From positions 33,969-97,968 of the forward strand of contig MFSH01000023.1 of assembly GCA_001784875.1 (NCBI GenBank): a stretch of DNA of 64,000 nucleotides. Direction: 5' to 3'. Positions 5,047 through 58,010 of the stretch are shown piece after piece; positions within the stretch are counted from its first letter, which is position 1; the number at the start of each line of letters is the position of its first letter. The translations under genes and the position numbers were made by a program. Below the pieces are notes generated by a model that saw only the letters and a list, made by a program, of their open reading frames with translations, was not told where the DNA came from and ran no database searches. Source of the DNA: Candidatus Moranbacteria bacterium RIFOXYB1_FULL_43_19 (GTDB lineage Bacteria; Patescibacteriota; Minisyncoccia; Moranbacterales; UBA11712).

Positions 5047-5874
5047 TCAAGGCCGAAAACCGGAAAATTTTTTGTGAAAAAATAAGGTTGCACCGATTAT
5101 AAGCAGAAAAACAGAAAGCCATTGCCCAAATGTGAGCGACCAAAAAATCCAGCCTTTGTCCGGTTCGCGGAAAAATTCGGCGATGAATCTTGCAATTCCA
5201 TATCCCATCAAATAAAACGAAGTTAGATAGCCGATAGGAAATTTATACTTTCGTAAACTCCATAAAACCGCAAAGAGCAAAATCCCCTCCAAAAAGGCTT
5301 CGTAAAGTTGCGAAGGATGGCGAAGCTGGCCGGAAAAATCCATAGGAAAATACATTCCCCAAAACTTATTCGTAACCCGTCCGTATAATTCCCCATTTAT
5401 GAAATTTCCTAGGCGTCCAAAAGTGAAGGCGAGCGGTACAGCGGGAGCGAACAAATCACTGAATTCTAAAAGATTAATTTTTCGCGTCCGGCAGAAAAGA
5501 TAAAAAGCGAGAGTTAGCCCCAAAAGTCCCCCAAAATAACTCATGCCGTAAATCCCGATGTATTGCCAGTGGTTTCCGATATCAAACGGGAGAAATATTT
5601 GCGAAAGGTGATTTTTGAAATAACTCCAATCGTAAATGAAAACATCTCCCAGTCGCGCGCCCAGCAGAAGTCCGACAATTGCCCACGGGAAAAAATCCTG
5701 GACCGTTTCAAAAGAAATTCCCAAATTTTCGGAACGTATGCGATAACGAATTAAATAATAAGCTATCGCAAAAGAGACCACGTACATAATCCCGTACCAG
5801 GAAACTGGGATTGGTCCGATGGTGAAAGCGATCGGGTTTAGATGCGCGGGAATATTTTGCCAGGCTTGGAGCAT
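5047..5874 (-). CDS. lgt: prolipoprotein diacylglyceryl transferase
   Basis: Lgt signature GRLGNFINGELYG, conserved HPSQLYE, N-terminal IGPIPVSWYGIMY; start taken at MLQAW (ORF runs to 5964). Confidence 0.85.
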   Translation of the reverse strand: MLQAWQNIPAHLNPIAFTIGPIPVSWYGIMYVVSFAIAYYLIRYRIRSENLGISFETVQDFFPWAIVGLLLGARLGDVFIYDWSYFKNHLSQIFLPFDIGNHWQYIGIYGMSYFGGLLGLTLAFYLFCRTRKINLLEFSDLFAPAVPLAFTFGRLGNFINGELYGRVTNKFWGMYFPMDFSGQLRHPSQLYEAFLEGILLFAVLWSLRKYKFPIGYLTSFYLMGYGIARFIAEFFREPDKGWIFWSLTFGQWLSVFLLIIGATLFFHKKFSGFRP

Positions 5875-7139: not shown

Positions 7140-8636
7140 ATGCCAGTTCAAAATTCCAAAGAAAATCGCAAAAAATGCCTTTGCCCGAACTGTCCGAGTT
7201 ACCCGCATGAATGCGACGGAGAAGTTTTATATTGCGCGGAGAAGGTGGGGCATAGCCAGTGCGACGTGAACGCCAAGGGCTGTCTATGCCCCGGATGTCT
7301 GGTTTGGAGTGAGAATAATCTCAAGGAAATATATTATTGCACGCGCGACACAATAGAACTAGCTTCCGCCCGAGGCGGATCCGCCTTTGGCGGAAAAGTT
7401 GTGATGCGGAAAAAAAAGCCGGACGAGAGCAATGAATTTTATCAGACAGTTGCGGACATAAAAACAATAGCCGAAACAGGCGAGAGCATTGAAAGGCCGA
7501 TGGGTTCGCTCAAGAAGCCGGGTTGCGGGTTATCTCTGGATAATCTGCATTTTGTCCCGGCGCAAGTGGCGAAAATTCCGCTCGACAGGGAAGAAAAAGT
7601 GAAAACTGGTGTTATTATCGGTCCGGTTGCAAAAAAACCGCTCAAAGTTTCATCTCCTATTATGATTACGGGAATGTCTTTTGGCGCGACCTCAAAAAAT
7701 GTGCATCTTGTTATTTCTCGCGTTGCGAAGGAACTGAAAATTGCTTTCAACTCTGGTGAAGGAGGCATCCTTGAAGAAGAATACGAATCAAAGAAATATC
7801 TAATCGGCCAATACGCTACCGGACGATTTGGAATCAATGAAGATGTGATCAAAAAAGTGGCGGCGGTTGAAATTCGCTTTGGACAAGGCGCCTATCCCGG
7901 GAAGGGAAGTTATCTGCCGGCCAAGAAAATGAGCGAAGAAGTCGCGAATCTGCGGGGACTGAAAACAGGCGAACCGGCCTATTCTCCCGCGCACCATCAT
8001 GATATGGAAACGCCAGGGGAAATTGCAGAGAAAGTGAAATGGCTCCGCGAACTGACGGGAGGAGTTCCCATCGGCGCGAAAATCGGCTGTGGAAATGTTG
8101 AGGAAGATGTGAAAGTTTTGGCCGAGGCCGGAATTGATTATATCGCCATTGACGGATTTGGCGGGGGAACAGGTGCGACGGACGCCTATGTCAAAGACAA
8201 CGTTGGGATTCCGGTTTGGGCGGCGATTCCAAAAGCTAATCAAACTCTTCAAGAACTGGGAGCGAGGAAAAATGTTACCCTCATCGCCGGAGGAAGCTTG
8301 CGGCTCTCGGCGGATTTTGCGAAGTGTCTCGCGCTAGGAGCGGATGCTGTTTATATCGGTACGGCCGCGCTCATTGCCATAAACTGCCAGCAGTATCGCG
8401 TCTGCCATACGGGACTTTGCCCGACGGGCGTGACTACCCATCGGCCGGAACTCGCTTCGCAGCTCAATGTCGAAGAAGGCGTCCGAAAATTATCAAACTT
8501 TATAAAAATATCAACCGAAGAAATTGCAGAATTCACAAGAATAGTCGGAAAAGATAATATAAATAAATTATCAAGCGAAGATTTAGTTTCAATAAAAAGA
8601 GATTTGGCGGAAATCCTCGGGGTAAAATGGATATAA
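7140..8636 (+). CDS. glutamate synthase domain-2-like FMN-binding protein (archaeal-type GltB family) with N-terminal 8-Cys module
   Basis: GSLRLSADFAKCLALGADAVYIGTAALIAINC..C..TGLCPTG matches GltB FMN/Fe-S domain; N-terminus CLCPNCP..C..C..CLCPGC. Confidence 0.75.
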   Translation: MPVQNSKENRKKCLCPNCPSYPHECDGEVLYCAEKVGHSQCDVNAKGCLCPGCLVWSENNLKEIYYCTRDTIELASARGGSAFGGKVVMRKKKPDESNEFYQTVADIKTIAETGESIERPMGSLKKPGCGLSLDNLHFVPAQVAKIPLDREEKVKTGVIIGPVAKKPLKVSSPIMITGMSFGATSKNVHLVISRVAKELKIAFNSGEGGILEEEYESKKYLIGQYATGRFGINEDVIKKVAAVEIRFGQGAYPGKGSYLPAKKMSEEVANLRGLKTGEPAYSPAHHHDMETPGEIAEKVKWLRELTGGVPIGAKIGCGNVEEDVKVLAEAGIDYIAIDGFGGGTGATDAYVKDNVGIPVWAAIPKANQTLQELGARKNVTLIAGGSLRLSADFAKCLALGADAVYIGTAALIAINCQQYRVCHTGLCPTGVTTHRPELASQLNVEEGVRKLSNFIKISTEEIAEFTRIVGKDNINKLSSEDLVSIKRDLAEILGVKWI

Positions 8637-8756: not shown

Positions 8757-8987
8757 TTATTCCGTTGCTCCCCGGAAGCAAAAATACCCGTCTTCCAAAT
8801 TATATTCCGCGTGGACAGGACAGGCGCCGCAAAGACATCCTTCCTTGGAAAGTTTGCAGGCTGTTTTTCCTTTGGCGCAGTAGAGATTTTCTTCCTTTTC
8901 TTCGGGACAGTTTGATTGGGTGAAAGTCGGACACTTTGGGCAAAAACATTTTTCCGCGTTTTCTTTTGTATTAGGAACTCTTGTCAT
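8757..8987 (-). CDS. standalone small Cys-rich protein paralogous to N-terminus of 7140..8636
   Basis: 76 aa; KEN.(E/K)KC.CP.CP..YCA(E/K)...C....(K/E)GCLC..C aligns residue-by-residue with the GltB-like N-terminal module. Confidence 0.6.
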   Translation of the reverse strand: MTRVPNTKENAEKCFCPKCPTFTQSNCPEEKEENLYCAKGKTACKLSKEGCLCGACPVHAEYNLEDGYFCFRGATE

Positions 8988-9002: not shown

Positions 9003-9227
9003 CTAGAACCCCAAATAGGCTGAAAGAGCAAAGAGGGCATGGACCAACGCCAAAAAAATTGTCAGTTTCGCCAGTCGGAGATGCCATTTGAAAGGAATTT
9101 TTGTGTTGCCCTTGAAATTCAGATAGCCGATTGTCGCAGTTGAAAAAAGAGAAAGCAAAGCCAGCATCCCCAGATAAGCAACAATAGGCAGACCCAATAT
9201 TAGAGTATAGGCGATTTTTAAGATCAT
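9003..9227 (-). CDS. small 2-TM membrane protein
   Basis: 74-aa hydrophobic ORF immediately downstream of cupredoxin gene on same strand. Confidence 0.4.
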   Translation of the reverse strand: MILKIAYTLILGLPIVAYLGMLALLSLFSTATIGYLNFKGNTKIPFKWHLRLAKLTIFLALVHALFALSAYLGF

Positions 9228-9230
9228 GCT

Positions 9231-9707
9231 TTATTCTACGATCAATTTTCCGACCATTCCTTGCTGGCGATGAGTGGGAACGCTGCAATAATATTCAAAC
9301 GTTCCTATCTTGTCAGCGACGAATTCAATCGAATCGCTCTGGCCGGTTTGAACAACTTTCGTTCTGGCGTTGAATTCTTCTATGACCCAGTCGTGCATTC
9401 CCAGAGTGACAGCCAGATTAATTCTTACTCTATCACCTTTTTTCACTTTTATTTCTTTGATAGAAAATTCAAAGGGTTTGGCGGAGACGTCAAAAGATTT
9501 CACGCTTTGGTTGTCAGCCGAAGATTCTTTTGGAGCGTCAGTTGGAGTGCCCTGAGAGAGAGTTGCGGAATCCTTATTTCCGCCCCGGGAGAAAAGGATT
9601 ATTCCAATGATTGCAGCCGCAACTACTGCAATCCAAACCATCGAATTGCCTTTTGCCGGCATTTCATTTTGGTCTTTTTGCTCCTCGCTTGTTTCTTTTT
9701 CTTCCAT
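9231..9707 (-). CDS. membrane-anchored cupredoxin (blue copper protein, plastocyanin/amicyanin-like)
   Basis: Type-1 Cu ligand pattern H (GMHDW)...C-x2-H-x4-M (YYCSVPTHRQQGM); N-terminal TM anchor. Confidence 0.75.
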   Translation of the reverse strand: MEEKETSEEQKDQNEMPAKGNSMVWIAVVAAAIIGIILFSRGGNKDSATLSQGTPTDAPKESSADNQSVKSFDVSAKPFEFSIKEIKVKKGDRVRINLAVTLGMHDWVIEEFNARTKVVQTGQSDSIEFVADKIGTFEYYCSVPTHRQQGMVGKLIVE

Positions 9708-9779
9708 ATTTTTAGCTTGAATATCATGGGTTATAAATATTGATAAATTTCTGTCCTAATACTAAATAATACCATATAT

Positions 9780-11027
9780 TTGTCAAATTATTTCAGAGTT
9801 GCGGCAACCCTGGCTGGTTTAAATAATAAGCATATGGAAGGGTTTCTCTTGGTCTTGCGTAAATATAGTAATATGGAAGAAGAAAATTCAAAAAATAATT
9901 ATGGAAGAAGATCTGGCGTTTTTGTTTGGATTAAGGCTTTTATAGCGGTCGGAATCATTCTTTTTGCCTATCAATGGATCAACAATGCAGGTTGGGCAAG
10001 CAAAAGCATAATTGACTCCGAGCTCACGCTTGGAATTTCTTTTCTAACTGGGGTAGCAGCTTCCTTTTCAACATGCCTCGCCGTTGTCGGAGGAATGGTC
10101 ATTGCTTTTTCAGAAAAGTACGAATCCCGGGACAAAAATTTTTTTGCCGGAGTGATTCGGCCGAATCTATATTTCCACATTGGCCGACTGATAACCTTTT
10201 TTTTCTTGGGAGGAATTCTGGGCTTCGTCGGAGGAACGCTCAATATCAGCGGAAATTTTGTCTCCATGTACACCATTGTCTTCGCTGTTGTGATGGGCTG
10301 GCTGGGTCTCAATATTTTAGGAATCCTTCCTCCAATTTCGGCGCTCGGCTGGCGGATGCCAAAAAGCCTGACAAGACTTTGGGCAAAAATGGAAAATTCA
10401 GAGCACCAGGCAGCGCCGTTTCTTTTGGGCGGGCTCACTTTTTTTCTACCTTGCGGGTTTACCCAGAGCACCCAAGTTCTGGCTCTGGTTTCGGGAAGTT
10501 TTTTCGCCGGCGCGCTGGGACTTTTACTTTTTGCGCTGGGAACGATGCCGGTTCTCATGGCGGTGGGAGTTGCCACTTCCTGGGCGCGAAACAAAAAATT
10601 CGAAACTTTTCAGAAAGCGGCCGGAATTCTTATTATCTTTTTTGCGATATTTTCATTTCAAGCGGGTCTAGCGCTCAAAAGTGTGAAAAAAAATGTGATT
10701 TCTAATCCGGTTTCAAATTCAGAAAAAACGCAACTCTCCAAAGTCTTGCCAAACAATTTAGCTGAAAACCAAACGGTGGAAATGAGTGTTACGAGTCGCG
10801 GTTTTGAGCCGGGCAGCTTAAAAATAAAAAAAGGCACGCCGGTCCGCTGGATTATCAGGGGGGTTTCCGTCAGTGGTTGCACCAACCAGATTATTATCCC
10901 CAGTCTGGATATTGCTAAAAACATCAGTTCCGGTGAGAATATAATCAGTTTTGTTCCTCCGGACGTACGTGAAATTCCTTTCAGCTGTGGAATGGGAATG
11001 GTACGTGGGAAATTTATTCTTGAATAA
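9780..11027 (+). CDS. CcdA/DsbD-like polytopic membrane protein fused to C-terminal cupredoxin-like domain
   Basis: TM Cys residues ([15 protein letters not shown]) typical of DsbD_2/CcdA-like proteins; C-terminal beta-domain ending [15 protein letters not shown]; true start likely internal (MEGF/MEEEN). Confidence 0.6.
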
Positions 11028-11095
11028 ATTTCCCAAAGTTCAAAGTTCAAGATGAAAAAATAAAAATTTTTGGGTCCCGCTCTTCGGGACAGCTT

Positions 11096-13312
11096 ATGCT
11101 TATGAATCGCAAAAAGACGATGGTAACAATTTCCGGAATGACTTGCGCGAGTTGTGCCGTTTCGAACGAAAAAGAACTCTTGAAAACAAAGGGCATTTTG
11201 GACGCGTCGGTGAATTTCGCGGCCAAAAAGGCCTTTGTCGAATACGACGCGGACGAATTGAGCGAAGATGATGTAAAGAAGGTAATCAAAGACAACGGAT
11301 ACCAAATCGTGGAGCACGAAGAACATAGCATAAAACACAAACACGCCATGGTTATGGAAAACGGCGGTCACGAACATGCCAGCGAAGACATCAAAAATAA
11401 TTGGCAGGCATTTCTTTGGTCGGCCGTTTTTAGCCTGCCGCTTGTTTTGGAAATGGTTTATCAAATCCGGGCTGGTAAAAATATCCTTGGCATTGATCAG
11501 GTGATGTGGCTGCATCTCGTTTTGGCAACGTTTGTTGTTTTATTGTTCGGCTGGAGATTTCACCGAATGGCGTTCATGCAAGCCAAAAAATTTCGGGCCA
11601 ATATGGACACCCTGATATCGCTTGGAACGCTTACGGCTTATTTTTTCAGTTTGTGGGCAATTTTCAACGGGCGGGAGAGTTATCTTGAATCAGCTGCGCT
11701 TATAATCACATTCATTCTTCTCGGTAAATATTTTGAAGCCAAAAGCACGGGACAAGCCGGAGAGGCAATGCGCAAACTCTTGGAGCTGGGAGCAAAAAGA
11801 GCCCGCGTGGTTACGGAGGCCGGAGAAAAAGAAGTGCTCGTCGACGAGATAAAAGTTGGCGATGTGATTGTGGTGAAACCGGGCGAAAAAATTCCACTCG
11901 ACGGAATTGTTCTTGAAGGGGAATCCAACGTGGACGAATCTATGCTCACAGGCGAATCATTGCCGGTAGAAAAGAAAAAATTTTCCTCGATTTTTGGGGC
12001 AACGGTCAATCAGGATGGCGTGCTAAAAATAAAAGTGATGCAGATCGGAGAGCAGACAGTACTGGCGCAGATTATCAAAACCGTTGAGCAAGCACAGAGT
12101 TCGAAAGCTCCCATTCAAAAATTGGCTGACAAGATTTCTGGAATTTTTGTGCCAATTGTGATTGTTCTGGCTGCCATATCTTTCATCGGCTGGTATGGTT
12201 TTTCGGCTGATTTCACAAAAGCTCTGATCAATGCGGTGGCGGTTTTGGTGATTGCCTGTCCCTGCGCTTTGGGCCTTGCGACGCCAGCGGCAATCATGGT
12301 TGGAACGGGAAGGGGTGCGAAGCAAGGAATACTTTTCAAAAACGGGGAAAGCTTCGAAAGGGCAAAAGATATATCGATGATTGTGTTTGACAAAACGGGC
12401 ACGCTGACGAAAGGTCGGCCGGAAGTTGAAAGAGTTTTTGTGAATCCCGGCTTTAATTTCTCGAAGGATAAAATTTTAAAGATAGCGGGGAGCTTGGCGA
12501 AGCATTCCGAACACCCTCTTTCGAAGGCCGTAGCTGATTATATACACAAGAAAAATATTGCCCCAGTGGACATGAAAAATATCAAAGAGGAAAGGGGGAA
12601 AGGAATTTCGGCAGTTTGCGAGGAACACGGAACAAAATTGCTTTTGGGGAATAGAAAACTTTTAGAAGATAACAAAATTGACACAACGTGGGCGCAGGAC
12701 ATTCTGGAATCGGAAGAATTTCAATCTGGAACAAAATTATTTGTTGCGCATGGCAATGAAACCGTGGGCGCGATTGCAGTGGCGGATGAATTGCGAAATG
12801 AAGCGAAAGAAGCTCTGGGCAAGCTGAAAAAGATGGGACTGAAGATTGGAATGATGACAGGCGACAGCAAAAAAACGGCTGAACATATTGCCAAGGCCCT
12901 GGAAATAAAAGATGTCCGAGCTGAAGTTTTGCCCTCGGAGAAGGCGAATGAAATAAAAAGACTTCAGAGTATTGGGGAGAAGGTTGTTTTCGTGGGCGAT
13001 GGGATCAATGACGCGCCGAGCCTTGTTCAGGCTGATCTTGGAATTGCCATGGGATCAGCACAGGATATTGCCAAAGAGGCGGGACAGATTATTCTTGTCC
13101 ACAATAATCTCAAGAAAGTTGTTGAGGCCGTTGCAGTATCCAGGCTTACTTTCAAAACTATCCGCCAGAATCTTTTCTGGGCGTTCGGATATAATGTCGT
13201 TGCTATTCCACTCGCCATGGCCGGGTTCCTGAATCCCATTATTGCGGCGGGAGCTATGGCTTTTTCTTCTGTTTCAGTGGTGTTGAACAGTTTGAGGATT
13301 TATCGGAAATGA
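11096..13312 (+). CDS. copA: copper-translocating P1B-type ATPase
   Basis: N-terminal [17 protein letters not shown] motif ([11 protein letters not shown]), DKTGTLT phosphorylation site, GDGINDAP hinge. Confidence 0.9.
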
Positions 13313-13464
13313 AAAAGCAGGAAAGAAACCTTTTTTTATTTCCGACTTTAGAGATTATTTCGAAAACGTGAACTCCGAACCACGATATTGTTTCCGAAGG
13401 TGCCGGAATTTTGATTTATCTTTAATTTTCAGCGATACGTTATTTTCCGCTCGACTCCCCAAAG

Positions 13465-25902: not shown

Positions 25903-26466
25903 TTAATTTTTCAATAGCTGGCTAAAATTTTTCCGGAGCTTTGTGATTTTTGGAGAGATATTGGTTTGGCAATATGGTTTTTCCGGATTGTTTGCAAAAT
26001 AATTTTGGTGATAGTCTTCTGCGGGATAAAAATTTTCAAGCCGTTTCACTTCGGTCACGATCTGGTTTTTGAAAATTTTTTCTTTTTCTAATTTTTCAAT
26101 GAATTTTTCCGCTTCATTTTTCTGCTTTTCGTCCGAATAAAGAATTATCGAGCGGTATTGCGTTCCTTCGTCGGTTCCCTGCCGGTTGAAAGTCGTCGGG
26201 TCGTGCATGGCGAAAAAAACAGAGAGTAAATCTTTGAATGCAATTTCTTTCGGATCATAGCCAATCTTCATTACTTCAGCATGGCCGGTTTTTCCGGAAC
26301 AAACTTTTTCATAGGTTGGATTAGGCATGGTGCCTCCAGCATATCCCGAAGTAACTTTGATGACCCCTTTTAATTTTGCAAGGATGGCCTCAAGGCACCA
26401 AAAACAGCCGCCGCCAAAGACAGCTTGGGAAAAATTTTGATTATTCTCCGTCGTCTGGCCCTTCAT
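25903..26466 (-). CDS. msrA: peptide methionine-S-sulfoxide reductase
   Basis: GGGCFWCLEAI active site, GYAGG; start ambiguous (overlaps msrB 3' end). Confidence 0.85.
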   Translation of the reverse strand: MKGQTTENNQNFSQAVFGGGCFWCLEAILAKLKGVIKVTSGYAGGTMPNPTYEKVCSGKTGHAEVMKIGYDPKEIAFKDLLSVFFAMHDPTTFNRQGTDEGTQYRSIILYSDEKQKNEAEKFIEKLEKEKIFKNQIVTEVKRLENFYPAEDYHQNYFANNPEKPYCQTNISPKITKLRKNFSQLLKN

Positions 26467-26860
26467 TTGTTTCGGGCACAAATTTCAAGGCAATTGAATT
26501 GATGCAGTATCTTTTTCCTGTCGGAGGCGGGCCGTCGCCAAATACATGGCCGAGATGCGATCCGCAGCGGGCGCAACGGACTTCTTTCCGGACCATTCCG
26601 CCGGAAGTGTCTTCGAAATATTCCACGTGATCTGGCGCGATAGGCTCAAAATAGCTTGGCCAGCCGGTGCCGGAATCAAACATATCTTTGTGGCGGAAAA
26701 GAACCAAATCGCAAGCGGCGCAATGATAGATTCCGTCCTCGTCTTTTCTCCAGGAACAGGTGAACGGAGCTTCCGTCCCGTATTGACGCATAACCCGGAA
26801 CTGCTCCGGAGTGAGAATTTCCTTCCACTCCTTTTCGGTTTTGTGTATTTTTTTAACCAT
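26441..26860 (-). CDS. msrB: peptide methionine-R-sulfoxide reductase
   Basis: CxxC...CxxC zinc site (CAACDL, CARCGSHLGHVF) and RYCINS catalytic Cys; start at MVKKIH. Confidence 0.85.
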   Translation of the reverse strand: MVKKIHKTEKEWKEILTPEQFRVMRQYGTEAPFTCSWRKDEDGIYHCAACDLVLFRHKDMFDSGTGWPSYFEPIAPDHVEYFEDTSGGMVRKEVRCARCGSHLGHVFGDGPPPTGKRYCINSIALKFVPETNEGPDDGE

Positions 26861-27062
26861 AAAGGTATTTTTTTCAAAAACGGACCCTGCGCGGCCCGTC
26901 CTTGAAATAAATTCGAGGTGATCACCCCAGCACCAATCCCAAATATATATTGTTTGTTTGACTCGCTCCAAACGTGAAGCGGCTTCGCCTGACTTTTTCG
27001 ATTTTATAAAATTTGCGCCGAGGATTGGTGCGGGGTTGCGCTTTGCGATATAATCGCAAAGC

Positions 27063-28109: not shown

Positions 28110-28853
28110 ATGACACACGAAAAAAACGTTATTTCCGCCGCAATCCTCTTCGTGTTGATACTTATCGGAGCCGGCTTTTATTCTTCGAAAAAAGAATCTT
28201 CTCCAGCTGCGGGCTTAACTGATTTCAAAAATAGTGTCGGAGAAAAGGCTGAAAAATCCGAGCCAGCGCTTCCGGAAAAAATCATGCTCGAAGTCCCGTT
28301 CACTTCTCAATCGCCCCTGGGGAATTGGCAGGACGTCCGGGAACAAAACGGATGTGAGGAGGCTGCTCTTCTTATGGTGATTGCCTGGGCCAGGGGCGAA
28401 AGCATTTCTCCCGAAGCGGCTGCCAGGGAAATACAAAACATGTCAGACTACCACCTCAAAGCGCATGGGCATTTTCATGATTTGTCGAACGCCGACACTC
28501 TCCAGCTGCTCAACGAATATTTCCAATATTTCAAAGCGCGTCTTGTCGAAGACATCGGGACTGAAGACATAAAAAAAGAACTGGCCGCCGGCAAACTGGT
28601 GATCGTTCCGATAAACGGGGCAACAATAGGGAATCCAAATTATGAACCTCCTGGGCCGACCAACCACAAGATCGTGATCATCGGGTATGATGACGCCGCT
28701 CAGGAATTTGTCACTCATGATCCCGGAACCAGCCGGGGGAAGAGTTATCGATATGGATACGAAGTTCTCGAGAAATCTCTGGAAGATTATCCTACCGGGC
28801 TTCACGAAAAATTTCCAGAAAGAAAAACATCAATGATCGTAGTGGAAAAATAA
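28110..28853 (+). CDS. membrane-anchored C39-like (papain-fold, Peptidase_C39_2-like) putative peptidase
   Basis: VPFTSQSP..NGCEEAALLMV (Gln/Cys) and later VTHDPGT (His-Asp); paralog of 30208..30951. Confidence 0.55.
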   Translation: MTHEKNVISAAILFVLILIGAGFYSSKKESSPAAGLTDFKNSVGEKAEKSEPALPEKIMLEVPFTSQSPLGNWQDVREQNGCEEAALLMVIAWARGESISPEAAAREIQNMSDYHLKAHGHFHDLSNADTLQLLNEYFQYFKARLVEDIGTEDIKKELAAGKLVIVPINGATIGNPNYEPPGPTNHKIVIIGYDDAAQEFVTHDPGTSRGKSYRYGYEVLEKSLEDYPTGLHEKFPERKTSMIVVEK

Positions 28854-28878
28854 TATTTCTTAACAGAATAACGCTTGC

Positions 28879-30195
28879 ATGAAAAGAATGCTCAAAATTG
28901 TTCCGAAAGGGAGTGTTGTGCTTGCGGCAACAAGTTTTGCCTCGTATGTTTTGGGGCTGGCGCGGGACCATTTTTTTGCCCAGACGTTCGGAGCGTCACG
29001 AGCTCTTGACGCCTACAACGCGGCATTTCTTTTTCCCGACCTATTGTTCAATATTCTCATCGCGAGCGGGATTGCCGCGGCTTTTGTTCCGATTCTAACC
29101 AGCCTCCTGCGGTCCGACAAAGCCAAAGCGGAAGAATATGTCAATTCAGTCATCACTTCCGCCACTGGGACGATGCTTACGATGGCGATGCTCATCGTCA
29201 TTTTCGCGGGACCTGTCAGCGCAGTTATCGCGCCTGGCTTTGATCTTCAGGACAGGCAGCTCACAGTGAAAATTCTCCGTGTTCTCGCTTTTTCTCCCAT
29301 TTTTTTCGCGGCTTCGAATGCGCTCGGTGCGATGCTGATCACAAAAAGAAGATTTCTTTTCTACGGCCTTTCGCCGGTTCTCTATAATCTCGGGATAATC
29401 GCCGGCACGCTGCTTCTTGCTCCCCGTTTTGGGATAATGGGCGTGGCAGTCGGGACACTTTTTGGAGCGGCCTTGCATCTTTTGGTGAGAATAGCCGACG
29501 TCTGGCGGAGCGGCTTCCGTTTCAAAGCAGTTCTTGCCTTTCGCACTCCCGAATTTCGCAAAACTATCAGTCTTATGATTCCGAAAATGTTCGGGCACCC
29601 GATTGAACTGGCGACTTTTTGGGGTTTCACGGCCATTGCTTCCGCCTTGGCGGCTGGTTCGGTGGCGGTGATCAGTTTTGCCCGCAACTTTCAGAGTGTT
29701 CCCATCAGTCTCATCGGCATAACCATCGCGACGACCAGTTTTCCTCTTTTGGCAGGGGCGGCCAGCGAAAAAACGAGGGAAATTTTTTGGAAGATACTCA
29801 AAAGATCATCGCTTTTGATTTTTTCCGGAAGCTTTCTGGCTGCCATAGCGATTTATATTATTCGCGTGCCTCTCATCAGAATATTCCTTGGCGGCGGAGA
29901 ATTTCAATCCAACGACGTAGATCGGACTGCCGCCGCGCTGGGGATGTTTTGCTTGAGCATTCCGACCGAAGCCCTCGTCCATCTATTAGCAAGAGCTTTC
30001 TACGCGACAAAAAACACGACCATTCCAGTCGCGGTGAGCGTCTTGGGAATCATCATTGCCATTCCCGGGGGATATTTTTTGAGCCAGTCTTGGGGAATTG
30101 TCGCCCTGCCTTTCGCTTTTTTTCTCGGCAGCGCGGCGGAACTTCTGATCCTTGGAATACTTCTGCCGCTTCGCGTGCGAAAGATTTTTGCCTGA
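28879..30195 (+). CDS. murJ: lipid II flippase MurJ (MviN)
   Basis: 14-TM MOP superfamily; N-terminal SFASYVLGLARDHFFAQTFGASRALDAYNAAFLFPDLLFNI typical MurJ. Confidence 0.85.
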   Translation: MKRMLKIVPKGSVVLAATSFASYVLGLARDHFFAQTFGASRALDAYNAAFLFPDLLFNILIASGIAAAFVPILTSLLRSDKAKAEEYVNSVITSATGTMLTMAMLIVIFAGPVSAVIAPGFDLQDRQLTVKILRVLAFSPIFFAASNALGAMLITKRRFLFYGLSPVLYNLGIIAGTLLLAPRFGIMGVAVGTLFGAALHLLVRIADVWRSGFRFKAVLAFRTPEFRKTISLMIPKMFGHPIELATFWGFTAIASALAAGSVAVISFARNFQSVPISLIGITIATTSFPLLAGAASEKTREIFWKILKRSSLLIFSGSFLAAIAIYIIRVPLIRIFLGGGEFQSNDVDRTAAALGMFCLSIPTEALVHLLARAFYATKNTTIPVAVSVLGIIIAIPGGYFLSQSWGIVALPFAFFLGSAAELLILGILLPLRVRKIFA

Positions 30196-30207
30196 TGTAA
30201 AAAATTC

Positions 30208-30951
30208 TCAGCCGATGATGATCATAACTTTTCTTCCTGTGTCCACATTTCCTCCGTTCCAGTCGTGAACGGCGTTCAGCAGCACCTCCGGTTTATAAAC
30301 ATAATCAGCGCCTTTCCTGGTTCCCGGATCGTTGGTGATCAAGTTGCCGCTTTTCGTGTAGCCTTTTACGACCAGCATATGGTATAGCGGGCCGGGCTGG
30401 CGGTAGTTGGGGTTTCCAATCTCTCTTCCGGCCAGGGGCAATATCACGGCCTTTCCTTCCGCCAAGGCCTTTTTTATTTCTTCGGAGTTGGGATCAGAAA
30501 TAGTTTTCACGTTCGCGAGTCCGAAATAATCCCGCAGAATGAGAGCCGTTTCTTCAATGTTCGTATCTTCATAATAGCCGAATTTTGTTTCTTCGAAATT
30601 TTTGATGGCGAGCATTTTTGCGTCCGCATCATCGGGGCCCGCGATGACCTTGCCTTTGACATAGCTGGCCGCCATCAGGACAGAAGCCTCTTCGCAAAAT
30701 TGCTGGTAAGGCAAATCCCAATTTTGGTGCGGAGCTTGGGAAGTGAATGGAATGGCAAGATTCACTTCAGCAGGCAGAGCTGCCTCCGGTTCGGACGGAG
30801 CCTGGTTTTGAGCCTGGGATGAAGCGGTGGAATTATAGGATTGAGCCGGAGGCATAGGAATTGCCTCTGGCTTTTTTTTAGACATCACAAAAAATATTCC
30901 AGCCAAAAACGGGAACGCGATCAGGATCAAAGTTATTCGGAGTCTTCGCAT
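30208..30951 (-). CDS. secreted C39-like putative peptidase, paralog of 28110..28853
   Basis: IPFTSQAPHQNW..QQFCEEASVLMA and ITNDPGT; same length (247 aa), convergent with murJ. Confidence 0.55.
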   Translation of the reverse strand: MRRLRITLILIAFPFLAGIFFVMSKKKPEAIPMPPAQSYNSTASSQAQNQAPSEPEAALPAEVNLAIPFTSQAPHQNWDLPYQQFCEEASVLMAASYVKGKVIAGPDDADAKMLAIKNFEETKFGYYEDTNIEETALILRDYFGLANVKTISDPNSEEIKKALAEGKAVILPLAGREIGNPNYRQPGPLYHMLVVKGYTKSGNLITNDPGTRKGADYVYKPEVLLNAVHDWNGGNVDTGRKVMIIIG

Positions 30952-31728: not shown

Positions 31729-32679
31729 TTGGCAAGCACAGATATTATCGCTTGGATCACGGGCGGCTACGGGAAATATTTTCTGTCCCCATGGTGTATT
31801 GTTATTGTATGGATGTATAAGCTTTCAACCATTCAGATGAATGAGGAAAATCAAAAAAATCAAGGTCAGTCGGCTGACAAGGGAAATTCCGGGATAAAAA
31901 ATTACGGGTGGCTCGCCGCGGCTGTAATAATCGCCGCAATTCTTGGCGGTTATTTCATTTTTCGCAATGACATCCGGAACATGGATCAACTGCCGGACAA
32001 TGTCACGCTCAAAAATGAAACGACGGGCGAGACGGAAACAATCATTTTTGAAAATCCGAAAAAATCCGCGCATTACGAAGGCAATACCCCTTCTCACGGC
32101 GATAAACTTGCCGGAGTTCCGATCAACGTGGTGATTGATTTTAATTTTGATCTCGCGTCTCCTTCGGCGATATCGGTCAAAATGAACGGAAAAGAATACG
32201 GAATCGGAGAAACGATAATTGACACGAACAAATTGTCTATGCGAAAAAAAATGGATCCCGATTCTCCGGACGGTCTCTATGACGTGGCCCATAACGCCTG
32301 TTGGCCTGACGGATCATGCCATGACGGGAAATTCCAGTTTGCGATCGACAGGTCAGGCGCCGGAGATTTTGCGGATCTTCGCGGGCAAAAAGAGGTGATG
32401 ATAAAAATGAAAAATATCGCTTTCGAACCGGGAGAAATCATCATCAGCCCGGGGACCGTCGTGACTTGGGTGCAGGAAGACGACGCGGAGCATTTCGTGA
32501 ACACGGAAACACATCCGGCCCATACCTATTTTCCGGCACAAAATTCCCGCGGTCTCAAGCTCGGCGACACTTTCTCGACGACATTTGAAAAGCCGGGAAT
32601 ATATCCCTACCATTGCAGCGCCCACGCGAGTGTCATGACCGGAACGATTCTGGTGATCTCCCCCGAAGTCGAAGTTTAG
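31729..32679 (+). CDS. membrane-anchored protein with C-terminal cupredoxin (plastocyanin/azurin-like) domain
   Basis: Type-1 Cu ligands H (ETHPAH)...YHCSAHASVM (C-x2-H-x3-M); N-terminal TM; start may be internal (MNEEN at 31837). Confidence 0.7.
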   Translation: MASTDIIAWITGGYGKYFLSPWCIVIVWMYKLSTIQMNEENQKNQGQSADKGNSGIKNYGWLAAAVIIAAILGGYFIFRNDIRNMDQLPDNVTLKNETTGETETIIFENPKKSAHYEGNTPSHGDKLAGVPINVVIDFNFDLASPSAISVKMNGKEYGIGETIIDTNKLSMRKKMDPDSPDGLYDVAHNACWPDGSCHDGKFQFAIDRSGAGDFADLRGQKEVMIKMKNIAFEPGEIIISPGTVVTWVQEDDAEHFVNTETHPAHTYFPAQNSRGLKLGDTFSTTFEKPGIYPYHCSAHASVMTGTILVISPEVEV

Positions 32680-55357: not shown

Positions 55358-55500
55358 GTTTGAAATCCTAAATTCTAATATCTAAATCCTAAACAATACT
55401 AAAATTCAAATAACCAAAATTCAAAACTTTTGAAAATTTGAATTTGGAGAGTTTGAATTTGTTTAGAGTTTGGCGCTTGGAATTTAGGATTTTTATGGTT

Positions 55501-56718
55501 ATGTTCAAAATTGTTAAAAGAGAAAATGAGCTGAGGGCAGGAAAGCTGCAAACGATGCATGGAACGGTCAATACTCCGTTTTTTTTGCCTATTGCCACCA
55601 AAGGAGCAGTGAAAAATTTGACCTCCGAAGAGCTTCGGGAGGCCGGCGCGGAAATTATCTTAGGCAATACCTATCACCTTTGGCTCCGGCCGGGAATTGA
55701 TGTAATCAAAAAAGCAGCCTGCCCGCAACGCTCTCGCTTGCAAGGCGGGCGGGGCGGATTGCACCGTTTCATGAACTGGAACGGGCCGATTCTGACTGAC
55801 TCTGGCGGTTATCAGGTTTTTTCACTTGGCCCTGTTAAATTCCGCCAGGGGCGGACCTTCGCCAAAGGCGAAGGATTTAACAGGGTAAACCTATCTGAAG
55901 AGGGAGTTGAATTTCGCGATCCGGTGAATGGAAAAAAATATTTCATGACGCCGGAAAAATCAATCGAAATCCAGCTTGCTCTCGGGAGCGATATTATCAT
56001 GGTTCTTGATGAGTGTCCGCCGTACCCATGTTCAAAAGATTATGCGAAGAAATCGCTGGAGAGAACGACGAGATGGGCGGAGCGTTGCTTTCGATATTTT
56101 CATGAGCAAATAAATAAAAATAAAAAGAAATATAAGAAATGCAGACCTCTGTTATTTTGTATTGTTCAAGGTTCTGTATTTAAGGATCTCCGCAAAAAAT
56201 CGGCGAATCAACTGTTGAATATGGATTTCTCCGCCCTAGGCGGACCAGCCTCGGGCTGGGACGGCTATGCCATCGGCGGAGTTGCGGTTGGCGAGCCGCG
56301 GGAAAAAATGAAAAAGATCCTGCAGTGGGTTTTGCCGATGCTTTCGGAAGACAAGCCGAGATACCTCATGGGGCTGGGAAAGCCGGAAGAAATTGTCCAC
56401 GCCGTAAAGAATGGAATTGATATGTTCGATTGCGTCATTCCAACGCGCAACGCCCGGCACGGGTCATTTTTTGTCCGGGAAAGCAGAAGAAAGAGCATCA
56501 ACGGAAATAATTTTTATCGAACAATCAACATAACCAACGAGAAATTCAAAAAAGATTTTTTCCCAGTTGGAAAAAATTGTGATTGCTACACTTGCCGGAA
56601 TTTTACCCGGAGCTATCTGCGGCATCTTTTTTCTGTTGGCGAACCTCTGGCGGGGCGCCTGGCGACAATCCACAACTTAAAATTTTATCTGGATCTCATG
56701 AAAATATTGCGAAAATGA
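55501..56718 (+). CDS. tgt: queuine tRNA-ribosyltransferase
   Basis: TPFFLPIATKGAV, LTDSGGYQVFSL catalytic Asp region, Zn site CDCYTC..H; start taken at MFKIVK. Confidence 0.88.
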   Translation: MFKIVKRENELRAGKLQTMHGTVNTPFFLPIATKGAVKNLTSEELREAGAEIILGNTYHLWLRPGIDVIKKAACPQRSRLQGGRGGLHRFMNWNGPILTDSGGYQVFSLGPVKFRQGRTFAKGEGFNRVNLSEEGVEFRDPVNGKKYFMTPEKSIEIQLALGSDIIMVLDECPPYPCSKDYAKKSLERTTRWAERCFRYFHEQINKNKKKYKKCRPLLFCIVQGSVFKDLRKKSANQLLNMDFSALGGPASGWDGYAIGGVAVGEPREKMKKILQWVLPMLSEDKPRYLMGLGKPEEIVHAVKNGIDMFDCVIPTRNARHGSFFVRESRRKSINGNNFYRTINITNEKFKKDFFPVGKNCDCYTCRNFTRSYLRHLFSVGEPLAGRLATIHNLKFYLDLMKILRK

Positions 56719-58010
56719 GAAAAAAAATCGAACTCATTGCTCCCGGAGGGAGCCTTGAAAAAATTGAATATGCCTATCATTTTGGGGCTGACGCGGTCTA
56801 TGCGGGGCTGCCGAATTTTTCTTTGCGGTCGAGGATCAATGAATTCAACGAGAGAAGATTGGTGAAAGCAGCGAAGTTGGCGCGAATCCTTGGCAAAAAA
56901 ATATATTTCACAATCAATGTCTACGCCCACGAGCGGCACCTGGAAGTTCTCAAAAAACATTTGAAATTTATAAAAAAGATAAAGCCGGACGCGGTGATCG
57001 TCAGCGATCCAGGCATAATCAATCTGGTCAGAAATTTTTCGCCGAAGATAAAAATTCATCTTTCCACTCAAGCCAACACAACCAATTCTGAAGCGGTAAA
57101 ATTTTGGCAAAAACTAGGAGTATCGCGAATAATCCTCGCGCGGGAAGTGACGCTTGAAGAAATAAGGGGAATAAGAAAAGCGTGTCCGAAAATAGAATTG
57201 GAATATTTTGTCCATGGCGCGATGTGCATGAGCTATTCGGGAAGATGCCTGCTTTCCCGATGGATGCGAAACCGGAGCGCTAATCTGGGGGACTGCGCAC
57301 AACCGTGCCGGTGGCCGTATCACGTAACACGAAACACAAAACACGTAACACAAGAAAATAAGGAAGAAATTATTTTATCAGAGGATGAACATGGGACTTA
57401 TTTTCTAAATTCCAAGGATCTTTGTTTGATAGAGTATTTAGACAATTTGGCCAAAGCGGGAGTGAATTCTTTTAAAATCGAAGGGCGGACGAAGAGCGCC
57501 TATTATGTTGCTTGCGTGGCAAAATCCTATAAAAAAGTATTGGACGCAATAAAATTCGGAAAAAGCCAAATGGAAATCAAAAAAGTTTCTGCTTTGGAAA
57601 GAAAAGAGCTGGAAAAATTGGTAAACCGCGGATACTCAACCGGATTTTTGTTCGGAAAAGACAAATGGGAAAATGATTTTGAAAAATCCCACCAGGAAAG
57701 CAAATGGCAATTTGTGGGGGAGATTATTGGCATAGAACCGACTCATATCGCTGCACAAAGCGGGTTTTGCTCGCGAAGCGTTGCGGGCGGGGAAAATTGG
57801 GCAAAAGTTAAAATACATAACGTTCTGAAAAAAAAAGAAAGAGTAGAAATAATCATGCCAGACAAGATATATGGAGACGAAATTTTGGAAATTAGAAACA
57901 GCAATGGCGAAAAAGTTAAATCGGCCCACGGCGGGGGAAAACAGGCTTATTTTGTCCGGCTCAGCCGTTTTTATCCCGAAAAATCGATGCTAAGAAAATA
58001 TCAGGGTTAA
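56715..58010 (+). CDS. peptidase U32 family protein (RlhA/TrhP-like putative RNA hydroxylase)
   Basis: U32 signature region E..FVHGAMCMSYSGRCLLS; 4-nt ATGA overlap with tgt stop. Confidence 0.8.
   Translation: MRKKIELIAPGGSLEKIEYAYHFGADAVYAGLPNFSLRSRINEFNERRLVKAAKLARILGKKIYFTINVYAHERHLEVLKKHLKFIKKIKPDAVIVSDPGIINLVRNFSPKIKIHLSTQANTTNSEAVKFWQKLGVSRIILAREVTLEEIRGIRKACPKIELEYFVHGAMCMSYSGRCLLSRWMRNRSANLGDCAQPCRWPYHVTRNTKHVTQENKEEIILSEDEHGTYFLNSKDLCLIEYLDNLAKAGVNSFKIEGRTKSAYYVACVAKSYKKVLDAIKFGKSQMEIKKVSALERKELEKLVNRGYSTGFLFGKDKWENDFEKSHQESKWQFVGEIIGIEPTHIAAQSGFCSRSVAGGENWAKVKIHNVLKKKERVEIIMPDKIYGDEILEIRNSNGEKVKSAHGGGKQAYFVRLSRFYPEKSMLRKYQG

Follow-up and report, generated by a model that had tools for sequence, protein, structure and literature searches.

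The cupredoxin metal-binding domains of S. pneumoniae CupA and CopA (PDB 4f2e, 2mry and 4f2f) are the closest known counterparts of one of the copper domains described here. In S. pneumoniae, CupA is held on the cytoplasmic face by a single transmembrane (TM) anchor and feeds CopA, which has a cupredoxin metal-binding domain of its own, and the regulator is CopY; according to a review, CupA is confined to a few streptococci (PMC7558416). The B. subtilis-type operon follows the order csoR-copZ-copA, that is, a CsoR-like repressor, a copper-binding protein (soluble CopZ) and a P1B-1 ATPase. CcdA-type electron carriers are characterised by cysteines in TM1 and TM4.

Here, we analysed a window of 64 kb (the whole stretch of DNA studied, to which all coordinates refer) from an ultra-small CPR bacterium of the Moranbacteria. 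Two of its proteins discussed below, B and E, show 100% identity to proteins from Candidatus Moranbacteria bacterium RIFOXYB1_FULL_43_19. All open reading frames were found at the coordinates given below; they have significant domain matches, except that of protein A, which has no Pfam match. An earlier note on this DNA had described a single copper module, which instead consists of two units side by side, C-copA and B-A-DUF2769; the label of copper handling suits C and CopA. In our best reading of the whole, which we hold with moderate confidence, Cu(I) export and handling by C-CopA lies beside a minimal transmembrane electron conduit with a blue-copper terminus, formed by A and B. What the analysis establishes is which domains are present, how well their ligands are conserved and which genes are linked; both mechanisms, with the topology, haem binding, the course of Cu and electrons and the acceptor, are inferred. 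The two systems would be independent and adjacent by chance in the Moranbacteria genome, and a third cuproprotein, E, would be unlinked to them.

CopA (11096..13312, + strand) has 738 aa and carries a single HMA domain at its N-terminus. It matches Pfam E1-E2_ATPase (3e-59), Hydrolase (6e-35) and HMA (6e-12), as well as NCBIfam ATPase-IB1_Cu (1e-177; 592 bits against a cutoff of 397). A motif scan located GMTCASC at 11135, TGE at 11948, CPC at 12257, DKTGT at 12389, YNVVAIP at 13190 and MAFSS at 13256. With every P1B-1 motif present in addition to the CxxC of the HMA domain, CopA is by its motifs a Cu(I)/Ag(I) ATPase of this type, in agreement with the copA that the earlier note had recognised from CPC and HMA, and it would pump Cu(I) out of the cell. 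A terminator-like hairpin (13392-13408) lies 3' of copA.

Protein C (9834..11027, + strand) joins seven predicted TM helices of the DsbD_2 family (Pfam 1.4e-32; 113.6 bits against a cutoff of 24.9) to a C-terminal cupredoxin domain (10752..11018; Cupredoxin_1, 3e-08). An alternative TTG start at 9780 gives a protein of 415 aa, to which the residue numbers refer. As had been noticed before, C is a polytopic protein with intramembrane cysteines and a C-terminal SCGMGM. There are two such cysteines, C99 in TM1 (10074-10076) and C225 in TM4 (10452-10454), which coincide with breaks in the helices of the AF2 model and are 100% conserved in 120 homologues and in 68 aligned sequences. In the cupredoxin domain, C367 (10878), C403 (10986), M405 (10992) and M407 (10998) align with the binuclear Cu(I) site of CupA, and the domain also matches CupA by fold; all four residues are invariant in the 120 homologues. 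There is no His at either ligand position, with a Cys at the upstream position and C-G-M-G-M in the loop; therefore, this is not a blue-copper domain, and the three such domains counted previously are reduced to two, those of B and E. Its cupredoxin fold and Cys...Cys-x-Met-x-Met ligand set make it a CupA-type domain with predicted Cu(I) binding at a Cys2Met2 site, so that the possibility of a non-metal Ig fold, which had been named as a refutation, falls away. Lys/Arg counts in the loops and the AF2 helices give an N-in/C-out arrangement with the cupredoxin predicted outside, an orientation that derives solely from the positive-inside rule and a model with a pLDDT of 72 (about 88 in the cupredoxin part). 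"Periplasmic", the word used earlier for the suggested copper redox handling, is loose for this organism.

We propose that C relays Cu(I) between thiolates and either delivers or accepts it at the outer face. There, C would act as a buffer for exported Cu(I) and might also supply it to the external cuproproteins of the cell. In most orthologues, the relay would start at a cytoplasmic HMA domain: an N-terminal CxxC/HMA is present in 93 of 120 homologues (77%), and the precomputed Pfam column lists HMA for most. The C protein of this window is without it. The LysE superfamily consists mostly of exporters, metals included (PMC4608589).

Since the membrane domain of C belongs to DsbD_2 and carries cysteines in TM1 and TM4, electron rather than Cu(I) transfer is a serious alternative, to which we give a limited chance. 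C would then be a CcdA/DsbD-like thiol-disulfide carrier whose TM cysteine pair moves reducing equivalents outward and keeps both cysteines of its own external CupA-type site reduced, and this site could bind Cu(I) exported by CopA or act as an external Cu(II) reductase. The sequence signature of CcdA/DsbD is indeed there, with a profile match and with TM1 and TM4 each carrying a single conserved Cys that looks essential; the two are arranged as an inverted repeat and lie in helix breaks, as in CcdA. External thiolate sites need protection from oxidation, and CupA reduces Cu(II) via its S1 cysteines in vitro (PMC7558416). ScsB/DsbD-type proteins have also been tied to copper tolerance (PMC7785015; PMC4608589), and ScsB in particular to copper stress, in likeness to the copper-associated C. 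However, C differs from CcdA, DsbD and ScsB in having neither a thioredoxin-like periplasmic domain nor such a partner, and no thioredoxin-like gene was seen in the C-copA operon or in the orthologous loci inspected. The C family is instead fused to metal-binding domains (HMA and CupA-type), and the frequent cytoplasmic CxxC/HMA speaks for metal. The TM1 motif of C is without flanking prolines, the family profile matched no solved CcdA or DsbD by sequence, and TM1 of a Clostridial orthologue contains an HCxxxC motif resembling a soft-metal site. We retain the Cu(I) relay as the preferred reading of C.

The link between C and copA is widespread. Among 72 related loci, 63 have copA after C, directly downstream in 51 and within 3 kb in 12 more. 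These loci come mostly from CPR genomes, plus a Clostridial one in which an HMA-DsbD_2-cupredoxin gene lies 5' of copA. In the GTDB species-genome collection, the motif pair FFLPCGFT / FSC[WG]MGMV retrieved C relatives from at least 583 stretches, and CPR accounts for nearly all of the 80 best. About 21 loci, as well as the P0131 relative, have a CsoR-like gene directly upstream of C. The suggested search for csoR and copZ found neither in the 64-kb window, although csoR is often upstream in relatives.

In contrast, B and A belong to another gene set. Protein B (9231-9707, - strand) is divergently adjacent to C, with a promoter-like site at 9786-9759 on the - strand. A (9003..9227, - strand) starts 3 nt beyond the B stop codon, and a stand-alone DUF2769 gene (8757..8987, - strand), the third of the operon, starts 15 nt after the A stop. 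Four relatives (L085, L088, L169 and L170) hold the set Metallophos, B, A, DUF2769, GluS and LGT, except that A precedes B in L169 and LGT was not seen in the stretches of L088 or L170. C-copA is absent from the 5-6 kb shown around B-A-DUF2769 in these four loci. Conversely, C-copA occurs on its own in relatives, often with csoR; an A-family gene was found in 0 of 80 C loci, and stand-alone ORFs matching the B HMM in only a few. Because the B-A-DUF2769 order is kept without C-copA nearby, the four genes are not one module.

A single copper-resistance island made of all four genes is quite unlikely. On that account, B would resemble CopI as a copper-resistance cupredoxin outside the cytoplasm, binding or oxidising copper alongside C and CopA, and A would be a small copper-binding or assembly membrane protein outside any electron chain, its His residues ligating copper. 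Apart from the divergent adjacency in the window, csoR-C-copA lies ~2.5 kb from B in the P0131 relative, and this proximity makes a copper-resistance role of B possible; in the genome of L008 and L088, the two units are ~14 kb apart on one contig, and the C-terminus of B resembles NCBIfam CopI weakly (E 2.5e-08; 34 bits against a cutoff of 280). Set against this are the separate occurrence of the units, the recurrence of B homologues beside NOX-like or FNR-like genes, and the canonical His2CysMet type-1 site of B, which is typical of an electron carrier.

That site is well defined. B matches Pfam Copper-bind (2e-10; 41 bits against a cutoff of 21), and its four ligands, H105 (9393), C141 (9285), H146 (9270) and M151 (9255), are 100% conserved in 120 homologues. 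With its His...Cys-xn-His-xn-Met pattern conserved in orthologues, B is by sequence an N-terminally anchored type-1 (blue) copper protein, as first described, except that the loop is C141-x4-H146-x4-M151 and not C-x2-H-x4-M. Its relatives recur beside reductase genes. NOX-like FRD-FAD-NAD genes directly follow B-type genes in L102, L109, L114 and L174, with stop and start codons overlapping or nearly abutting, and L152 has a B-type gene with a split FRD plus a DH. In L173, an A homologue is followed by an FNR-like dehydrogenase, adjoining a B homologue, and this dehydrogenase can be aligned over its full length with the dehydrogenase half of NOX (E 4e-15); A here takes the place of an FRD beside the dehydrogenase and cupredoxin genes. 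A, FRD or DH lies within 1.5 kb of B in 15 of 76 loci (only about 20%), and A adjoins B only in Moranbacteria-like genomes and L173.

Protein A is the tiny neighbour of B already noticed for its two TM helices, with 74 aa. Its family comprises 237 clusters, nearly all of 72-75 aa, and one member, P0362, is a fused tandem dimer. G20 (9168) and G34 (9126) lie in TM1, and H49 (9081) and H63 (9039) in TM2; conservation reaches 100% for H49, 95% for H63, 99% for G20 and 94% for P14. The two His residues are thus arranged as His-x13-His on a single membrane-spanning helix, the spacing of His101/His115 in NOX2 (PMC3591440). Weak Ferric_reduct matches at profile positions 10-59 appear in 20 of 64 members (best 1.4e-05, about 15 bits against the Pfam cutoff of 28, which 0 of 64 members reach), and 5 of 64 weakly match Ni_hydr_CYTB / cytochrome b561. 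hhalign sets H49/H63 on the FRD His pair at a non-significant probability of 1.7%, and no PDB relative was found for A. The similarity of A to FRD/di-haem cytochrome b is below every curated threshold, and A has two TM helices and two His residues where FRD proteins have six TM helices and four His, so that A would need to dimerise.

We propose that A dimerises and carries electrons across the membrane as a minimal haem-b type protein. Two copies would form a four-helix bundle with one haem b ligated by the His49 pair and another by the His63 pair, the equivalent of half a ferric-reductase domain. Against this, haem synthesis is not known from CPR bacteria. Together, B and A are probably a minimal wire that carries electrons out of the cell: electrons from a cytoplasmic donor would pass through A to external B, which would then reduce an extracellular acceptor. 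The stand-alone DUF2769 protein (76 aa, 10 Cys, no TM helix; Pfam DUF2769 4.6e-15) is a candidate for the cytoplasmic redox partner, and its gene follows B or A in five of the five relatives examined, the four loci above and the P0131 genome. Another possible electron source is a GltB-like FMN oxidoreductase with an N-terminal DUF2769 (7140..8636, + strand; Glu_synthase 1.3e-113, DUF2769 9.5e-11), which is convergent with the operon and is the same neighbour in the four loci. Where the earlier note had left the partner of B unnamed, a donor can now be proposed, which would be A or, in other lineages of CPR, a ferric-reductase/NOX-like protein.

The acceptor side leads to a different proposal. 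The link replacing complex III in Patescibacteria has been called unidentified, and transfer from pcy to NirK has been proposed for this group (PMC12931201). B, and perhaps E, might thus be a plastocyanin-like donor to a NirK encoded elsewhere in the genome, with A unrelated to that function. In the PDB, B is matched best by three-domain NirK, in its N-terminal cupredoxin domain (6tfd, 6e-15; 2dv6, 3.5e-14), and several B homologues carry the JGI annotation nitrite reductase. We consider this unlikely: nirK is absent beside B in every locus examined, and the tight B-A-DUF2769 operon is left unexplained. The earlier statement that no respiratory chain is in view holds for the window and for 10 kb beyond either end, and a search for an acceptor or nitrite-reductase partner yielded no NirK, oxidase or multicopper oxidase within about 84 kb. 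Since the NirK proposal covers the acceptor side only, it is compatible with A or an FRD protein as donor, and we keep the A-B wire as the favoured reading.

The further anchored cupredoxin reported from 31729 is protein E (31837..32679, + strand; Copper-bind 5e-10), whose ORF is open from a TTG at 31729. It fuses an anchored CopC-like domain to a plastocyanin-like type-1 domain. The latter has the ligands H255, C296, H299 and M303, which are invariant in 120 homologues, and its conserved His...Cys-x2-His-x3-Met pattern identifies it by motif as a type-1 site, with the loop spacing originally read. The N-terminal domain is CopC-like by predicted fold and profile; H115, H123, C191, C197 and H198 are invariant, and H115 and H198 are positioned like CopC ligands. 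E is a separate anchored CopC-plastocyanin fusion, widespread in CPR. Electron transfer, as suggested earlier, is plausible for B and E with their invariant type-1 ligands, and the refutation by unconserved ligands that the earlier note had named does not apply to these two proteins.

Taken together, the C-copA unit resembles the B. subtilis-type operon in the order of CsoR-like repressor, copper-binding protein and P1B-1 ATPase in many C loci, and its proposed hand-off of exported Cu(I) to an extracytoplasmic binding protein is like that from CopA to CusF in E. coli. It differs in that a polytopic protein with metal sites on both membrane sides replaces CopZ, and in that this window has no csoR and no HMA domain on C. 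Compared with S. pneumoniae, the CupA-type domain of C ends a 7-TM DsbD_2 protein and has a predicted external position, CopA carries an HMA domain of the classical kind, relatives have CsoR as their regulator, and the fused family extends far beyond the reported streptococcal range of CupA. A shares with FRD proteins (SpNOX, MsrQ/YedZ and yeast Fre1) the H-x13-H spacing of FRD TM3; we found no paper in which a cupredoxin is the acceptor of an FRD protein. Plastocyanin, pseudoazurin and the NirK N-terminal cupredoxin share their His-Cys-His-Met site and cupredoxin fold with B and with the C-terminal domain of E, and the C-x4-H-x4-M loop of B is like that of rusticyanin. Unlike plastocyanin, pseudoazurin and the NirK domain, B and E are anchored in the membrane by an N-terminal helix, in a host without a visible quinone/bc1 chain. 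The N-terminal domain of E has its closest known relatives in CopC and in the CopC-like domain of YcnJ from B. subtilis (9c14 and 5icu), and E has no CopD partner. Whereas the mature N-terminal His of CopC follows a signal-peptide cleavage site and forms the Cu(II) site together with a D-x-H further down, H115 of E follows a conserved, uncleaved-looking NPKKSA stretch about 40 residues past the anchor. The domain of E also differs from CopC in its extra invariant Cys pair (CWPDGSCH) and in its fusion to a type-1 cupredoxin.

B, an anchored type-1 blue-copper protein, and A, a 74-aa protein with two TM helices, form a unit distinct from that of the polytopic protein C and the Cu(I)-exporting ATPase CopA. 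The earlier note had placed three blue-copper domains in one module; there are two such domains, C's being a CupA-type Cu(I) site, and two units. The locus is nevertheless a genuine finding, of more interest than a routine copA annotation. Between 5 and 15 kb of the window, ORFs and domain matches gave, in order, LGT (-), a 332-aa protein (+), a GltB-like FMN protein with a Cys-rich N-terminal DUF2769 domain (7140-8636, +), a stand-alone DUF2769 protein (8757-8987, -), A, read as an ORF (9003-9227, -), B (9231-9707, -), C (9780 or 9834 to 11027, +), CopA, recognized also by its motifs (11096-13312, +), a metallophosphoesterase (-) and a DUF5684 protein (-). E, an anchored CopC-plastocyanin fusion identified by ORF and domain match (31729 or 31837 to 32679), stands alone in the window and shows 55-68% identity across classes of CPR (Patescibacteria). 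All domain matches were far past chance level. Candidatus Moranbacteria bacterium RIFOXYB1_FULL_43_19 has proteins that match B and E at 100% identity, and the nearest homologues of every protein studied come from CPR.

The remainder of the window and 10 kb past each end hold housekeeping genes, and the respiratory or nitrite-reductase partner that the earlier note had proposed to look for is absent from this range, in which no respiratory complex, NirK or oxidase was found. Nor did csoR or copZ turn up: HMMs for csoR, copZ/HMA, the ferric-reductase domain (FRD) and FNR-like proteins, built from related loci and run on all window ORFs, matched only the HMA of CopA itself, and no CopY-box or CsoR-like palindrome was found in the window. 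tRNA and Rfam scans of the window gave no match. Elsewhere in the window, the MsrA (PMSR) and MsrB (SelR) genes adjoin with overlapping ORFs (25903-26971, -); in other bacteria, the FRD protein MsrQ is the electron donor for external methionine sulfoxide repair. The gene of the lipid II flippase MurJ lies between two Peptidase_C39_2 (papain-like) proteins, on opposite strands (28110-30951). The TGT and Peptidase_U32 ORFs (55438-58010) overlap by ~135 nt if the first start codon of each is taken, whereas gene callers choose shorter forms of 405 and 431 aa.

B carries the type-1 copper loop C141-x4-H146-x4-M151 with H105 upstream, and all four ligands, whose conservation had been in question, are invariant in 120 homologues. 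Among solved structures, the cupredoxin domains that form part of three-domain NirK are nearest to it. The genes of B, A and the small DUF2769 protein follow one another on the (-) strand with gaps of 3 and 15 nt. Three related loci (L085, L088 and L170) show the order metallophosphoesterase, B, A, DUF2769, convergent GltB-like protein with DUF2769, and LGT (the last not seen in the L088 or L170 stretches), with no C-copA in the 5-6 kb shown; in L169, A precedes B in an otherwise identical neighbourhood, again without C-copA. Given this shared order, the window has the arrangement of L085 with C-copA placed between B and the metallophosphoesterase gene. The stand-alone DUF2769 protein (76 aa, 10 Cys, two CxCxxC motifs) and the GltB-like protein are syntenic with the cupredoxin operon in four relatives; we know of no function for DUF2769.

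Other relatives vary the theme. In the P0131 genome, B is followed by DUF2769 and then by a Gluconate_2-dh3/GMC oxidoreductase pair, and csoR-C-copA lies two genes away, beyond the metallophosphoesterase gene. In known membrane-bound flavoprotein dehydrogenases, Gluconate_2-dh3 and GMC oxidoreductase are the two subunits besides the cytochrome; by analogy, the cupredoxin of this relative might replace the cytochrome c subunit of such an enzyme. A rubrerythrin gene follows the B homologue in the P0159 relative. The Daviesbacteria locus L172 encodes a second Cupredoxin_1 protein nearby (5410-5829), which is not a type-1 site, as its copper loop, YKYHDHLNPSLFG, has no Cys.

The genes beside B homologues speak for a redox role. 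In three metagenome loci with B-type cupredoxins (L102, L109 and L114), the gene after B starts at or before the B stop codon and encodes a NOX-like protein of 443-449 aa with Ferric_reduct, FAD_binding_8 and NAD_binding_1 domains. B is likewise followed by a NOX-like gene in L174 (4470-5783) and, truncated, in L120, while L097 has the FRD only and L152 has FRD and dehydrogenase as separate genes. In L173, an A-family gene (HMM E 1.9e-28) lies ~20 nt upstream of the gene for an FNR-like protein of 227 aa, and both genes converge on a B homologue. Over its whole length, the FNR-like protein aligns with the dehydrogenase half of the NOX-like protein of L174 (E 4e-15). Set against the NOX-like genes beside B, this arrangement places A in the position of the FRD membrane domain. 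Overall, A, an FRD or a dehydrogenase was present within 1.5 kb in 15 of 76 usable B loci. We found no literature linking FRD/NOX proteins with cupredoxins. L173 also encodes, ~2 kb from this cluster, an ArsP_1 permease, a 145-aa protein and then a DsbD_2 protein of 233 aa that stands alone (1-2102).

A full HMMER scan of 1.84 billion representatives gave 237 clusters of the A family, nearly all of 72-75 aa, in which H49 is invariant and H63 (95%), G20 (99%), P14 (94%) and Gly or Ala at position 34 (74%) are conserved. The positive loop (K39, K43, K47 and R51) predicts an N-out, loop-in, C-out topology, which would put G34 and H49 towards the inner side of the membrane and G20 and H63 towards the outer side. 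One homologue (P0362) is a tandem fusion of two A copies, consistent with a dimer as the working unit. The H-x13-H spacing matches the Gly/His pattern of cytochrome b helices A-D. It equals that of the haem ligands His101/His115 in TM3 of NOX2 (PMC3591440). When 64 members were scanned one by one, 20 matched Pfam Ferric_reduct (best E 1.4e-05, profile positions 10-59) and five matched prokaryotic cytochrome b561, all below curated cutoffs, and any other family was matched by at most three. The A profile gave only noise against PDB sequences, and hhalign of A with CPR FRD proteins was not significant, yet aligned H49/H63 with the His pair of FRD. Homology of A to FRD is thus suggested, and the claim extends as far as weak per-member Pfam matches and a common motif.

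With domain identities, invariant ligands, operon structure and recurrent gene linkage established, we hypothesize that A dimerizes and binds two b-haems. The inner haem would be reduced by a cytoplasmic donor, for which the window offers the 10-Cys DUF2769 protein and/or the adjacent FMN enzyme as candidates; in other lineages, the donor would be an FNR-like or NOX dehydrogenase acting on NAD(P)H. The outer haem would then pass the electron to B, and B to an external acceptor outside our view, perhaps an enzyme (NirK or a multicopper oxidase), a host-derived oxidant or, as with yeast Fre1, Cu(II)/Fe(III).

The second unit consists of C and CopA, the latter with the complete P1B-1 signature set GMTCASC, TGE, CPC, DKTGT, YNVVAIP and MAFSS. 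AF2 helices and loop charges predict that C has seven TM helices, an inner N-terminus and an outer C-terminus; in the 397-aa AF2 model, where they are numbered C81 and C207, C99 and C225 sit at breaks in TM1 and TM4. Its C-terminal domain, for which a non-metal Ig fold had been considered, is a CupA-type Cu(I) cupredoxin, and the predicted topology would put this site outside the cell. The start of C is ambiguous (9780-9836), with gene callers in different assemblies giving 415, 397 or 311 aa; TTG 9780 leaves 72 nt to the B start codon and ATG 9834 leaves 126 nt.

A scan of one genome per species for FFLPCGFT or FSC[WG]MGMV recovered relatives of C in at least 583 stretches; the best 80 were nearly all from Patescibacteria, of many classes, and none of these 80 loci had an A-family gene. 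Among the 72 C loci with room downstream, copA directly follows C on the same strand in 51 and lies within 3 kb in 12 more. A CsoR-like gene stands directly upstream of C, giving csoR-C-copA, in ~21 loci in addition to the P0131 relative. An N-terminal CxxC, mostly called HMA in the precomputed Pfam column, occurs in 93 of 120 C homologues and is missing from the window's C and its closest relatives. The family is not limited to CPR, since the cultured Clostridial species Acetoanaerobium noterae has a gene of the same architecture, HMA-DsbD_2-cupredoxin(CWMGM), immediately 5' of copA (ORFs read directly from an unannotated record). This gene was the one full-length homologue in a plasmid collection searched for C, which otherwise yielded only isolated cupredoxin matches. 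In the literature searched, no paper described the fusion seen in C. GC content at 10-14 kb (0.45) equals that of the surroundings and thus gives no compositional signal of horizontal transfer of C-copA.

The Peribacteria loci differ in two respects. In eleven of them (L024-L026, L030, L031, L038, L041, L047, L055, L058 and L075), the gene 5' of C encodes, instead of CsoR, an anchored Met/His/Cys-rich protein of 130-150 aa (for example MPMDHDM...HCDGC...GHCL), probably another copper-binding protein. In addition, CopA ORFs reach 1100-1300 aa (L025 11154-15035, L030 9813-13673, L031 9843-13739, L035 3494-7465 and L047 4417-8379), with three or four stretches in each that match the B-cupredoxin HMM, which suggests fused cupredoxin-type metal-binding domains as in S. 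pneumoniae CopA.

We favour a role for C in Cu(I) relay or export, or as captor of Cu(I) exported by CopA; in favour of this role are the fusions to HMA and the bias of the LysE superfamily towards export (PMC4608589). A thiolate chain would link the cytoplasmic HMA of those homologues that have one with the Cys pair in mid-membrane and, beyond it, the external Cys2Met2 site, cooperating with CopA under copper control. DsbD_2 membership and the cysteine pattern in TM1/TM4 would also fit an electron relay holding outer thiols reduced, a serious if less likely alternative; the C profile matched no CcdA or DsbD among PDB sequences. We rejected a CcdA function in cytochrome c maturation, since genes for cytochrome c or Ccs proteins are absent and every fusion and neighbour relates to copper, and the database label of C, 'sulfite exporter TauE/SafE', which rests on distant clan similarity. 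C and CopA may also supply copper to the external cuproproteins B and E, which would give a meaning to the loose association of the two units seen in Moranbacteria. E may trap Cu(II) and engage in electron exchange with it.

Taken together, we tentatively propose, as a possible if less than probable reading, that A represents an undescribed family of homodimeric, minimal di-haem TM cytochromes, in effect one third of an FRD, which with a cytoplasmic donor (DUF2769/FMN, or the FNR-like protein of L173) forms a split NADPH-oxidase-like conduit straight to an extracellular blue-copper protein, and that the C family holds an external CupA-type Cu(I) site on a thiolate relay serving CopA in CPR and Clostridia. 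CPR make up a large part of bacterial diversity and are usually seen as fermenters without electron transport; to our knowledge, they have neither quinones nor complex III. Many encode anchored cupredoxins, and a survey of Patescibacteria proposed that single-domain 'plastocyanins' feed NirK and called the link replacing complex III not identified (PMC12931201). The gene linkage reported here offers a concrete donor: a NOX-like FRD-FAD-NAD protein, a split FRD plus dehydrogenase, or a two-TM His-x13-His protein. If true, the conduit would be the missing link by which CPR feed external cupredoxins and dispose of reducing equivalents, and A, should it be a haem-binding dimer, would rank with the smallest transmembrane electron wires in nature.

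B and A are a candidate for a minimal, NOX-like electron route ending in a blue-copper protein, as yet uncharacterised. The literature presents the CupA-type Cu(I) site as a peculiarity of streptococci (PMC7558416); here it forms the conserved, predicted extracytoplasmic end of a membrane protein beside copA in many CPR genomes and one Clostridial genome. This recurrence, together with the spread of relatives across the species-genome collection, points to the C family as a common accessory to copper export that has been mislabelled. C is a new, uncharacterised form of the CupA paradigm that includes a fused DsbD_2 membrane domain and is recurrently found beside copA: whereas streptococcal CupA acts at the inner face of the membrane (PMC7558416), the site of C is predicted to lie outside.
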